Source: a virus (lineage: Duplodnaviria; Heunggongvirae; Uroviricota; Caudoviricetes). Taken from it: a DNA stretch of 64,000 nucleotides. Shown in pieces: positions 15,001 through 18,000 of this stretch; positions within the stretch are counted from its first letter, which is position 1, and the number at the start of each line of letters is the position of its first letter. Where the stretch lies: IMG/VR virus record IMGVR_UViG_2693429637_000011. One strand, 5' to 3'. A program made the position numbers.

Positions 15001-18000
15001 ACGGGCAGCTCCGGTATAACCGTATCTCGCAAGTGTTTCGTATTTACCGTACTCCATAATCACAGTCTCCAGTTCTGAGCCTGATGCTGAATGGCATTAG
15101 CGCCGGTGCCAGGTGTTTTAGCACCGCCACTTCCTCCGCTACCGCCAGCCTTATACATCGCATATGCACCTACCGCACCCAAACCAGCGCCAACAAGAGA
15201 GGCTCGCCCCTGCTGTTTCGTAAACGCAGCCTGTGCGTCCGATTTAGCTTTTGCCAGACTGCTGTCTGCCAGCGAGTTAAAACTCTGTAACGCATCCGCC
15301 TTTTGACCAGAACCGAGAGCAGCAACATCCTGTAGCCCGGCAACATACTTATCTGCCTGCGATACCTGCCCCCGTGTGGTTGTGTCAATCTGCCCGGTTA
15401 CCTGATCACTCTGGTTCGCATTCATTACCGCGTTAAAGCGACCACTGGACGGGTCAACACCGGACTGAGCAAGATTACCCGCCAGCTCCTTCCGTGCTTC
15501 GCCAAACTGTTTCTGATACCCCAGATTTGTGGTGCCAGCAATATTGTCGTACTGCTGCTCACTGTTCAGGTCATCGACCTTTTCCATGAAGTTATCTTCA
15601 GCCGGGCGGAGGATTTTTTGATAATCCTGCCACCCTTTCCAGGCCACTTCTTCCTGTGCTATTTGCGCTGCTGTTGGTTTTACTTTGGTATCACCACCGC
15701 CTTTTTTTCCGCCCATTATGGCCCCCTGGATAACAAAAAACCCTGCCGGGGCAGGGTCAGAATGTGAATTGCAATTGGTTTACACACGATAATGAATACA
15801 GTGGCAGTCAGACCGCTATCCTGAACACCATGAAGCCATCCTCATCATCCGGCATTCGCTCAAAGCCCAGACGTTTTCCCAGCCGGATAAATCCCCGTCT
15901 TGCCGTATGAAATTCAGCCCAGCGTCCGCCAGCCAGACGGGTTAATGTCTTCACCTCCGGCAGATAACGCTCAACGCTGTTACTCCCCGTACACACGCCC
16001 AGCAACACCAAAACATAAGGGATACCATCAGCACTGAGCACAGAACGCAGCACCAGAAAGCCATCAGGTGCCTCAAAACAAAACGCCTGCTTTTTAAGGC
16101 AGGCGTCTTTAACTTCATTCATAAATTCAGGGTTGCGGGAATTTCTCACAACACGCTGCATATACCGGAGAATTTTGTCGTCCATTCTCTCACCAGAAAC
16201 GGGTGCCATATCGGCTGAACCTCAGCAACCAGTTGACGGGGACTTTCGTCCCCGTCGCGGTTTTCCTACTGCTTACACTGTAAGAACGCCGCAAACTCCG
16301 CTCCCCACAAATTCAGCCGGAACTCACACAACGAGCCGTGTAACATCCAGATGGTGAAGATTACCGTCATACAAATTGTGACGGTGATGAGCGATTTTTG
16401 CGACATAGCGCTTGCCTCCTGAGTGGAGAGGCGCTAACCTTCTACTTGCTTAAGGTATGATGGTTAGGGCCTCGGGTTAAACAAAATGTTTGACTCGGGG
16501 CCTTTCCACATCAGGCCTTCAGGTTCACCTTCCAGCCATCAGCCGAAAGACACCCGCGCATAATCTACGATTTTTGCCCTGCACGGGCAACAAAAAACCC
16601 GCCATCACAGCGGGTTATGACATGTTGTCGGGTATTACTCAGAATTTCAGGCCAATGCCTGCAAATAAACCATCAGTTTTCCAGTCGCCAGAGCCTGAGC
16701 TTTCATAAGTGACGTCCATAGTAACACTTTCATTGAAGTTAAATTGCGCGCCGACAGACCATGCAATAGACGTTTTTTTGGTGCTGTTACTTTCAGAAAA
16801 ACTACCTACACCACCATTAAGATTGTCGTTAACTTTCAAATCATAAGTTACTTTTGCAACCGCAACACCTGCCATTGAATACACACTGAGGTATTCATTA
16901 AACCGCCACGAAGGACCGGATAGTAGACTCCAGTAATTAGCCCTGATATCAGTTCTCGCTGAAGCTGCCGGTTTTTTTACCTCTCGTGATGGATCGGAAG
17001 GCTTAACATCAATGAATGCCTGTGCATTAGTCATGGATCGAGCCCATGCAAAAGAGGTTATAACACCGATCTCATCCGTAATCTCATAACGATACTTAAT
17101 GTTCATTCCCAAGGGACTTTTCTCTTTACCATCATGGCCCCGGACAAACGCATCGTCATATTCTCCAGGTGAATTGAAATAGTTTTCATTCACAAAATTG
17201 TTAAAGGTATCAAGGTTATGAAGACTTAAATCCTTAACAAAATTATTCAGCCCGGATAGCTGAAGGTGAGCGAATCCAAGGGATACGGTACTATCACCAG
17301 ATGCAGCATGTGCCTGTGCAGTTAATCCACCTAAGCCCAGAGTTGCGCACACAAGAAATTTTGTGATACTTTTCATTTTAAGAATCTTCCTATATTAAAA
17401 ACATTGTTCTCTCTGTCCTTTCCACATTTTTGATTATTTACCATCCTGCCTGGAAATAAAAAATAAAAATTTTTCTTAAAATGATTGATAAATTTTATTG
17501 TGCTAATCATACATTGAAGTATTAATAACAAGAACTTTGTCTACATAAGGCTTTCGAATATCCCATGTTGCACCACCTGAATAATGCTCACAGGAATATA
17601 TTTTATTTCCTGTAGCGCCAGTGGATGTGGTATAAATCGGTCGATCATAAGGAGTTCTTTTCCAGTTATAATACCCGACCAGTGCAGGCATAATTGCGCA
17701 TGGATATCCAAGGTCCTTTTCAAATTTGATATCAACAGGTATTAACTTCGCGTCAAGCAGCATCATTTCGCCATGGTAAATCATCTCACCCAACGGATTA
17801 TACATGGCGATACCATACTCAGAAGGTTGAGTAACCATATTCGCAAAAGCATAAACAGTCGTAACACCAGGATTCGTTCCCCTGACAATTTGATGAAGCC
17901 TTAAGGCATGATATCCATCAATCTGTTCATGCGTGTACATGACATCGGCCTTCTTCTCTGTTCTGATAAAGAAAAAACAACTTTTTCCTGACGGAATTGA

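Follow-up and report, generated by a model that had tools for sequence, protein, structure and literature searches.

The stretch of DNA analyzed here (64,000 nucleotides, hereafter the window) is a Stx phage of the 933W/Sp5 type. It very probably carries a second and complete hok/Sok-type type I toxin-antitoxin cassette that is distinct from hokW-sokW, a reading that is based on sequence and, for its mechanism, on analogy with the hok/Sok system of R1. The cassette would be a self-contained module of about 390 bp that extends from a promoter to a 3' fold-back element (Table 1). The 46-codon toxin gene at its center is real and already known, and it belongs to a toxin family that is well known; only its mok-less regulation is undescribed. 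The 933W (NC_000924) and Sakai (NC_002695) reference records, which are the basis of most Stx-phage work, omit this toxin gene, which lies between lom and the late gene that follows. The first-pass annotation of the window had called the gene unannotated, which is true of these two records but not of PGAP, where it is labeled 'Hok/Gef family protein' (WP_000078907.1) in about 1,550 E. coli genomes, nor of the record of phage Lyz12581Vzw.

Table 1. Coordinates of the second hok module, its predicted RNA elements and the neighboring or related genes of the window.
Feature	Position	Strand	Basis
Terminator after the 133-aa ORF	15739-15758		terminator scan
133-aa ORF, same strand as the hok-family gene	15808-16209	-	first-pass annotation
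Whole hok/Sok-type module, promoter to 3' fold-back element, about 390 bp	16201-16590	-	homology boundaries
fbi-like 3' fold-back element (UCAGCCGA..GGCACCC), predicted to pair with the 5' element	16201-16218	-	full-length MFE
3' stem-loop, 9 bp, GAAA loop (GACGGGGAC/GTCCCCGTC)	16235-16256 (hairpin scan: 16234-16257)	-	sequence, fold
hok-family toxin CDS, 46 aa (MSQKSL...FLQCKQ)	16266-16406	-	translation and profile matches
Shine-Dalgarno-sequestering hairpin (AGCGCCUCUCC...GGAGGCAAGCGCU)	16407-16435	-	full-length RNA MFE
Putative antisense (Sok-like) promoter: TTGCCT, 17-nt spacer, TAACCT	16412-16440	+	likeness to sokW promoter
Shine-Dalgarno AGGAGG	16415-16420	-	sequence; 8 nt separation from ATG
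Predicted Sok-like RNA, about 59 nt: single-stranded 5' tail, 18-bp hairpin (16466-16504), UUU tail	16447-16505	+	inferred ends
ucb-like box (GGAAAGGCCCC), alternative partner of the 5' element	16497-16509	-	RNAalifold consensus, truncated/nascent MFE
tac-like element GGGUGUCUUUCGGCUGA, 5' end of predicted hok mRNA	16539-16555	-	Rfam RF01794 position 1 at 16555
Predicted hok promoter: TTGCCC (16585-16590), 17-nt spacer, TAGATT (16562-16567)	16562-16590	-	putative, read from sequence
Terminator upstream of the hok module	16596-16616	-	terminator scan
Ail/Lom gene	16639-17376		Pfam PF06316, 105.5 bits
hokW	49199-49354	-	Rfam sok/hok-leader match, 116.9 bits
mokW, 70 aa, in frame with hokW	49199-49411	-	sequence

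The minus-strand ORF encodes exactly the peptide that the first-pass annotation had quoted, and the assignment of this peptide to the Hok family is borne out by three profile collections. It matches the Pfam profile PF01848 (HOK_GEF) over residues 8-44 (33.2 bits, E=4e-8; the gathering cut-off is 22) and the PHROG 251 profile (85.8 bits, E=2.8e-24), and its best NCBIfam model is HokA (NF007290; 38.4 bits vs 22.7 with the generic Hok model). BLASTP gives 45% identity to K-12 HokA and 33% to HokW. The peptide has the size, helix, LCE motif and cysteine of the Hok/Gef family: residues L6-L22 are uncharged and, by inspection, mostly hydrophobic, the S25-L-C-E28 motif and C44 are present, and SLCE and AAFL.CK are common to this peptide and K-12 HokA. 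C27 and C44 are invariant in all 31 members of the subfamily. Judged by its sequence, the product is a genuine member of the Hok/Gef family, with a single hydrophobic helix at its N terminus and, like HokA, two hard-coded cysteines. The nearest curated relative is HokA, as had been proposed, yet the gene is not a HokA orthologue because its score falls far below the cut-off of 89 for that equivalog. K-12 HokA (b4455) has 50 rather than 46 residues, and the two fall into different 60%-identity clusters (93 vs 72) of a recent preprint (Escalera-Maurer et al., bioRxiv 10.1101/2025.08.07.668861). In both peptides the two cysteines are hard-coded (here as TGT codons), hence TadA editing should not be needed, whereas the tyrosine codon of HokW (TAC-GAA) is of the kind that TadA can edit. 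The consensus Shine-Dalgarno sequence is present as claimed, at a gap of 8 nt from the ATG and not 7. An identical peptide is encoded by 9 different coding sequences across 18 transcript variants, with 10 polymorphic sites that are all synonymous. The peptide is likewise identical in Sakai Sp5 and 933W, where 7 of 7 coding differences are silent; the Sakai coordinates of the locus are 1292387-1292815. Variation within the Stx-phage class is thus synonymous only, which suggests that the peptide is under selection.

The canonical hok of this phage, hokW, lies where the first-pass annotation had placed it, with an in-frame mok, and the 46-aa gene is indeed separate from it. Both belong to the same family, whereas hokW-mokW-sokW (49199-49473) is in the accessory region near the attachment site and the 46-aa gene is among late genes, next to the upstream terminator and Lom-like gene that had also been recognized. 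HokW has 51 residues and a 70-aa in-frame mok. The leader of hokW is matched by Rfam RF01794 above its gathering score, and that of the 46-aa gene with 35.1 bits. The two loci have the same antisense-promoter arrangement (TTGCCT-17-TAACCT) and the same mRNA 5' start, GGGUG. For the two loci of the window, the cross pairs are predicted at -43 and -48 kcal/mol, against -128 and -140 kcal/mol for the cognate pairs; the two Sok RNAs appear to be orthogonal. A second copy was considered unusual in the first-pass annotation, and this is fair, as phages with two hok copies make up only 3.5% of hok-carrying phages (bioRxiv 10.1101/2025.08.07.668861).

The promoters, RNA ends and processing of the hok-family locus are predictions on both strands. 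The putative hok promoter agrees with the consensus at 8 of 12 positions, is conserved in the alignment and lies 6 nt upstream of the start of the Rfam hok-leader model. A consensus promoter scan with a threshold of 9 matches in 12 found neither this promoter nor the antisense one. RF01794 is named 'sok' and in practice models the hok mRNA leader. In a permissive scan with a 1.3-kb search it matches the leader of the hok-family gene over its full length from 16555 (35.1 bits, E=6.6e-6), while at Rfam gathering thresholds no match is obtained at this locus (the gathering score is 59). Other weak matches of the permissive scan (BSnc120, Trp leader and others) were rejected as terminator-like noise. 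The full-length predicted mRNA (about 355 nt) folds with an MFE of -155.3 kcal/mol (z=-6.55) and is closed by pairing between its 5' and 3' ends. Pairing was scored in 47 module variants, with the structure derived from the window sequence itself. In the two 5'-3' (tac/fbi) helices, 99.1% and 89% of cells are paired (93% overall), against 32-47% when the partners were slid as a control; helix 1 is nearly invariant, so that its support from covariation is limited. The alternative tac/ucb stem is present in the RNAalifold consensus, where columns 1-14 pair with columns 47-60, and it is also the MFE structure of the 3'-truncated and the nascent RNA. The outer helix of the Shine-Dalgarno hairpin is paired in 99.6% of cells, and the hairpin dissolves in the truncated fold. 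Truncation of the 3' end by 34 nt switches the fold and raises the accessibility of the ribosome-binding site in 46 of the 47 variants, an opening that is modest (mean unpaired probability from 0.025 to 0.116). The 9-bp hairpin that the first-pass annotation had seen downstream of the gene at 16243-16264 exists, though at the position given in Table 1. Two of its pairs have changed in a compensatory way, one in 21 and the other in 26 of the 47 sequences, and it is paired in 99.8% of cells. By analogy with the 3' stem-loop of R1 hok, it is likely the protective end of the processed mRNA.

These elements are the ones known from the R1 hok/mok/Sok (parB) system (PMC9841398). There, as is predicted for this locus, the mRNA is closed by 5'-3' fold-back, forms a tac/ucb stem once its 3' end has been trimmed, carries a protective 3' stem-loop and has a cis-encoded antisense RNA of about 60 nt. 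If the locus works by the same logic, its full-length mRNA would be translationally inert in a closed form, in which the 5' element is paired with the extreme 3' end. Slow trimming to the 3' stem-loop would remove the fold-back partner. The 5' element could then capture the internal box (open form) and thereby free GAGGCCCUAACC to pair with GGUUAGCGCCUC, and this pairing would loosen the ribosome-binding-site hairpin. A short-lived Sok-like RNA of about 60 nt would pair with the leader and either block activation, trigger decay by RNase III, or both. The difference from R1 lies in the target of the switch. In R1 it unmasks the mok ribosome-binding site (PMC9841398), whereas here it is predicted to act on the ribosome-binding-site hairpin of hok itself.

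The R1 toxin is made only if ribosomes translate mok as far as the hok ribosome-binding site (PMC9841398). A mok gene was searched for in three ways, as an in-frame extension of hok, as a frame with an ATG, GTG, TTG or CTG start that crosses the hok start, and as a frame from the conserved ATG at transcript position 45; none of these is conserved. hokA has an in-frame mokA extension, whereas the window copy has an in-frame stop 10 codons upstream of hok and no frame crosses its hok start. It shares with 28 other variants (29 of 47) the lack of any crossing frame that begins with ATG, GTG or TTG. Because no mok frame is conserved in the window copy or across the 47 variants, the locus is best filed, on sequence, as hok/Sok-like in mechanism and as a version of the three-gene paradigm without mok. 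For the same reason, activation probably acts directly on the hok ribosome-binding site, without translational coupling. By analogy with R1, the native mRNA of a locus without mok might yield little Hok. More specifically, and as a tentative proposal that we hold to be possible rather than probable, the hok loci of cluster 72 would use a mok-independent switch: once the 3' end is trimmed, the internal box is taken up by the 5' element, GAGGCCCUAACC is set free to capture the anti-Shine-Dalgarno sequence GGUUAGCGCCUC and opens the hok ribosome-binding site, and the Sok-like RNA acts by occupying the relay segment and not by blocking mok translation.

The strongest competitor, which we consider unlikely, is that the locus is a canonical hok/mok/Sok system with a cryptic mok, so that Hok translation stays coupled. 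The coupling frame might be the upstream ORF from the ATG at transcript position 45 (16509-16511), which is preceded by GAAGG and kept in 44 of the 47 variants, or it might use a non-standard start. This ORF is anything between 8 and 79 codons long, and all that is kept of it are the first five codons, which overlap the ucb-like box. In 38 of the 47 variants it ends ahead of the ribosome-binding site, which is at odds with the R1 requirement. Some ATG, GTG or TTG frame does read across the hok start in 18 variants, but the starts are inconsistent (positions 16, 44, about 100 and 127). The frame equivalent to mokW (AGG UUA GCx) runs through the ribosome-binding site without a stop, and in the window copy it has no start codon. 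The authors of the preprint also find mok hard to identify (bioRxiv 10.1101/2025.08.07.668861).

A search of the leader for a Sok-like antisense promoter and terminator, as the first-pass annotation had suggested, found both signals of a cis-encoded antisense RNA, a candidate promoter and a hairpin on the plus strand. The hexamers and the spacing of this promoter are those of the sokW promoter at 49368-49396, and the annotated sokW start in 933W is the 7th base downstream of that promoter. The predicted RNA folds with -33.8 kcal/mol (z=-6.15). The -10 hexamer TAACCT matches the consensus at 3 of 6 positions and the terminator tail has three U only; conservation of AGGUUAGCGCC could serve the mRNA structure instead of an antisense -10. 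These features bear on a second alternative, that the gene is an orphan toxin without a working antitoxin RNA, silenced by the structure of its mRNA and by a lack of transcription in the lysogen, and used as a lysis helper when read from the Q-antiterminated late transcript. The gene is on the same strand as the flanking late and tail genes, the terminators on both sides could be read through by late antitermination, HokW, from the same type of phage, reportedly helps phage particles to be released upon induction, and both predicted promoters of the module are weak against the consensus. We nevertheless regard this alternative as quite improbable. An antisense promoter pattern (TTGnnn-17/18-TAACCT) is present in 45 of the 47 variants, with hexamers common to sokW, whose antitoxin RNA was characterized experimentally in Sp5. 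In all 47 variants the hairpin is more stable as antisense RNA than as mRNA (mean -22.5 vs -13.2 kcal/mol). This one-sided stability comes from G.U pairs and would be difficult to account for if there were no functional antisense RNA. The module is also kept in non-Stx contexts that do not have the surrounding late operon.

Copies of the module in Stx phages, P2-like prophages, Salmonella, E. albertii and Citrobacter are homologous from the promoter up to the last base of GGCACCC and no further. Because these boundaries are identical in unrelated genomic contexts, the module appears to be mobile. Its GC content is about 0.51, and the composition profile of the window shows no foreign base composition in the module itself. 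A scan of genome contigs found seven loci, of which the three attributed to implausible hosts (Xanthomonas, Planococcaceae and Vagococcus) were set aside as probable contamination. The first-pass annotation had also suggested that hok and the 133-aa ORF downstream form one two-gene moron cassette. The genes are adjacent and on the same strand, a terminator follows the ORF, and most of the matching phage records hold both (of 196 records, 185 cover 80% or more of the 1-kb query). The suggestion is not supported by the comparison between contexts and is very improbable: homology stops at the 3' fold-back element (16201), and the DNA downstream differs in other Stx phages and in all P2-like copies, where the module has other neighbors. 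The ORF has no match in Pfam and NCBIfam profile searches and falls in PHROG 610, whose function is unknown, and none of the three profile sets links it functionally to hok. Since the PHROG match begins only at residue 9, its start is probably at 16185, past the end of the hok mRNA. Both genes have an ordinary GC content (about 0.50), unlike the adjacent low-GC Lom block.

One of the 47 variants (L031) has a replaced 5' half and four others (the L016 group) carry a mutation in the 5' element. That the gene is a decaying hok remnant or a functionless chance ORF might be argued from such variants, from the missing reference annotations and from the inactivation of several chromosomal hok loci of K-12 (for example hokA by IS150), and it is already effectively refuted, with next to no probability left, since the Pfam and PHROG E-values exclude chance, all RNA elements are intact, coding variation within the Stx-phage class is silent only, and the identical peptide has been cloned and is absent from the three homologs named as non-toxic.

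This cloned homolog, 72_1589, is WP_000078907.1 and identical in sequence to the 46-aa peptide of the window. It was cloned under arabinose control (LRP157) for a toxicity assay in which only the coding sequence is used and the vector supplies the ribosome-binding site, and three of 45 tested homologs are named as non-toxic (bioRxiv 10.1101/2025.08.07.668861). Cluster 72 also includes the P2-prophage type 72_1621. The preprint deals with coding sequences only and explicitly leaves Mok, Sok and the mRNA ends undefined; the RNA anatomy and the position in the late region of a Stx phage are described here and are absent from it. A literature search (by accession, and for hok with Stx and lom) returned no paper on the locus at 16201-16590, and a preprint on the Pas sRNA and a ciprofloxacin transcriptome study mention hokW or hokE only. 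The sole functional study of the Sp5 hok system deleted hokW-sokW alone, with no mention of a second copy, and reported a two-fold drop in phage release, a partial phenotype (Takada et al., 2021, PMC8621323). Because hokW-sokW alone was deleted, this phenotype was measured with another Hok gene present. If the second cassette is functional as proposed, Sp5 and 933W carry two orthogonal hok/Sok systems, and the published hokW-sokW deletion phenotypes were obtained with a second Hok still there. An abundant Hok cluster that looks mok-less would further be a natural case in which hok translation is switched on without translational coupling. Candidate roles for the second system include prophage retention, help in lysis as reported for HokW, and exclusion of other phages.

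The 46-aa open reading frame (ORF) described by the first-pass annotation is present with an identical translation, and the observation of a hok gene at this position is confirmed. Chance is ruled out by the matches of its product to Pfam HOK_GEF (33.2 bits, E=4e-8; gathering cut-off 22) and to PHROG 251 (85.8 bits). The top NCBIfam model is HokA (38.4 bits), in agreement with the earlier assignment to the Hok family. By sequence comparison, HokA is the nearest curated relative (45% identity in BLASTP). Since 38.4 bits is far under the HokA cut-off of 89, the peptide is HokA-like and not HokA. 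The AGGAGG reported upstream of the hok ATG is there, at a spacing of 8 nt and not 7. The 9-bp hairpin reported downstream is also there, with a GAAA loop, at 16235-16256 and not at 16243-16264.

Features of the hok module and of other elements in the window
Feature	Position	Strand	Details
hok module	16201-16590	-	promoter to 3' fold-back element
46-aa hok gene	16266-16406	-	
AGGAGG	16415-16420	-	
ATG at transcript +45	16497-16511 region	-	preceded by GAAGG
RF01794 match, hok module	16395-16555	-	full length; 35.1 bits, E=6.6e-6
Predicted antisense promoter	16412-16440	+	TTGCCT-17-TAACCT
133-aa ORF	15808-16209	-	listed ATG 16207-16209
Probable true start of 133-aa ORF	16183-16185	-	ATG; GGUGAGAG just before
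Low-GC block	16550-18650		GC 0.32-0.45
2,783-aa ORF	4654-13005	-	
hokW	49199-49354	-	51 aa
hokW/mokW/sokW	49199-49473		58460-58734 in 933W
RF01794 match, hokW	49349-49523	-	116.9 bits
Antisense promoter, hokW locus	49368-49396		TTGCCT-17-TAACCT
STnc100 copies	39325-39530, 43530-43739, 44068-44273	-	full length; 160-165 bits each
isrK and C4 antisense RNA	47284-47471	-	69 and 66 bits
sRNA-Xcc1 match	377-466	+	67.5 bits

The window is of the 933W/Sp5-type short-tailed Stx phages. A 1-kb query around hok matched 196 phage records, mostly Stx-converting, and the region was matched in 1,550 of 5,426 complete E. coli genomes. The gene lies on the late-gene strand. On one side is the Ail/Lom gene with its terminator, and on the other an ORF that belongs to PHROG 610, a family of unknown function. 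Both 933W and Sakai Sp5 have an intact module with an identical peptide, and their reference records contain no feature at this position. The gene had been called unannotated, which is true of these two records and not of PGAP ("Hok/Gef family protein", WP_000078907.1) or of phage Lyz12581Vzw, where it is annotated. Seven coding differences separate the window copy from Sp5/933W, all silent. The Stx-phage class has nine coding sequences for one and the same peptide, and all 10 polymorphic sites are synonymous.

The Hok catalogue of a recent preprint (bioRxiv 10.1101/2025.08.07.668861) comprises 1,264 peptides in 61 clusters, and hok is reported there to be enriched in prophages. Its supplementary tables list the exact 46-aa peptide as 72_1589, cloned as LRP157, as well as the P2-type peptide 72_1621. 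Toxicity was found for 42 of the 45 homologs tested, and neither peptide is among the three named exceptions. The 46-aa hok is thus already catalogued, NCBI-labelled and cloned, and is outside the named non-toxic exceptions. The preprint contains no analysis of Mok, Sok or mRNA ends. What goes beyond existing records is the annotation gap in 933W and Sakai Sp5, a second hok copy that is unmentioned by the HokW study in Sp5 (Takada et al., 2021; PMC8621323), and an apparently mok-less architecture.

The Rfam "sok" model (RF01794) matches the module under its gathering score. Here and at hokW the match is in the sense orientation of hok, and sokW is annotated in 933W on the opposite strand. Hence the model, although named for the sok antitoxin, represents the leader of hok mRNA (5' GGGUG to hok AUG) and not an antisense RNA. 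Its position 1 falls on 16555, at the GGGUG, with a promoter-like TTGCCC-17-TAGATT 6 nt upstream. The 355-nt RNA from 16555 to 16201 has a predicted fold with z=-6.55, in which the 5' end (GGGUGUC..CGGCUGA) pairs with the 3' end (UCAGCCGA..GGCACCC). About 90 loci were collected and reduced to 47 distinct transcripts. Among these variants, pairing in the 5'-3' helices, the ribosome-binding-site hairpin and the 3' hairpin holds in 93% of cells, compared to 32-47% in a slid-partner control, and at two pairs of the 3' hairpin both partners have changed, in 21 and 26 sequences respectively. In the RNAalifold consensus of the 47 variants, the same 5' element pairs with an internal GGAAAGGCCCC box instead. 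A 5' element with two mutually exclusive partners is what the tac/fbi and tac/ucb pairings amount to in R1 hok mRNA (PMC9841398). Removal of the last 34 nt changes the predicted fold to tac/ucb, and a 10-bp hairpin holding AGGAGG is lost. The ribosome-binding site is then predicted to be more accessible in 46 of 47 variants, although the gain is modest (mean 0.025 to 0.116).

A search for a sok-like antisense promoter and terminator over the leader, as had been proposed, turned up candidates for both. The plus-strand promoter site equals, in hexamers and spacing, the one upstream of the annotated sokW start, and is retained in 45 of 47 variants. The transcript is predicted at ~59 nt, made up of an unpaired 5' tail and an 18-bp hairpin. 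In all 47 variants this hairpin is more stable than its mRNA-strand form (mean -22.5 vs. -13.2 kcal/mol), because antisense G.U pairs become C.A mismatches on the mRNA strand. The asymmetry argues that the predicted antisense RNA is under selection.

In R1, synthesis of Hok requires translation of mok up to the hok ribosome-binding site (PMC9841398). In the window copy a stop codon lies in frame 10 codons ahead of hok, and none of the frames runs across the hok start. Such a frame is absent from 29 of the 47 variants, the window copy included, and the remaining 18 have inconsistent start codons. The ATG at transcript +45, inside the ucb box, is shared by 44 of the 47 variants. The ORF that it opens is very variable (8-79 codons; 15 in the window copy), and in 38 of 47 it does not reach the ribosome-binding site. 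As mok is obligatory in R1 and none is conserved here, the apparently mok-less module is a real departure from the R1 paradigm, and its switch may act directly on the hok ribosome-binding site.

Homology between loci starts at the promoter and ends exactly after GGCACCC in Stx phages, in P2-like prophages beside ogr, and in Salmonella, E. albertii and Citrobacter. These common borders across contexts indicate that hok is a self-contained mobile module. A two-gene moron cassette with the neighboring 133-aa ORF had been proposed; the homology end and the PHROG 610 profile both speak against it. The listed ATG of that ORF falls within the hok 3' fold-back element and the PHROG 610 match begins only at residue 9, so its true start is probably elsewhere (Table). 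Some relatives deviate from the common form. One P2-like prophage contig (L062) contains a tandem pair of cluster-72-type modules (2378-2732 and 3001-3138), the second with a more divergent peptide (MPQKTIIVSILCL...). Locus L031 has unrelated DNA in place of the promoter and 5' half of the leader, and in the four loci of the L016 group the 5' element reads GGATGCC instead of GGGTGCC; these copies are possibly attenuated or inactive. Seven IMG/VR P2-like prophage contigs (L057, L062, L065, L077, L082, L085, L086) end precisely at the hok stop codon, and the predicted prophage boundary therefore removes the hok 3' untranslated region. Enterobacterial modules with 76-100% peptide identity (L008, L009, L011) occur in assemblies labelled Xanthomonas pisi (857-bp contig), Planococcaceae MAG (run of N) and Vagococcus sp., and are probably contaminating contigs.

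As had been noted, the 46-aa hok is separate from hokW: it lies at a different locus, and its peptide is 33% identical to HokW. An intact hokW/mokW/sokW locus is present, with a 70-aa Mok in frame. A tyrosine of HokW is encoded as TAC-GAA, which contains a TACG motif of the TadA-editable type; in the 46-aa Hok, by contrast, both cysteines are hard-coded as TGT, and they are invariant across its subfamily. The predicted Sok RNA of the 46-aa hok and sokW RNA look orthogonal. Two hok copies occur in only 3.5% of hok-carrying phages (bioRxiv 10.1101/2025.08.07.668861).

The low-GC block, flanked by DNA of about 0.51-0.55 GC on both sides, contains the Lom gene, a PHROG-425 "membrane associated protein" ORF and the next small ORF, and looks like a moron-type island. 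Unlike the Lom block, the hok module has an ordinary GC content. Downstream in the late region, the 2,783-aa ORF is annotated as "LPD5 domain-containing protein" in related phages. Other RNA elements include three copies of the STnc100 sRNA family, all inside 5 kb, an isrK that adjoins a C4 antisense RNA, and an sRNA-Xcc1 match near the window start.
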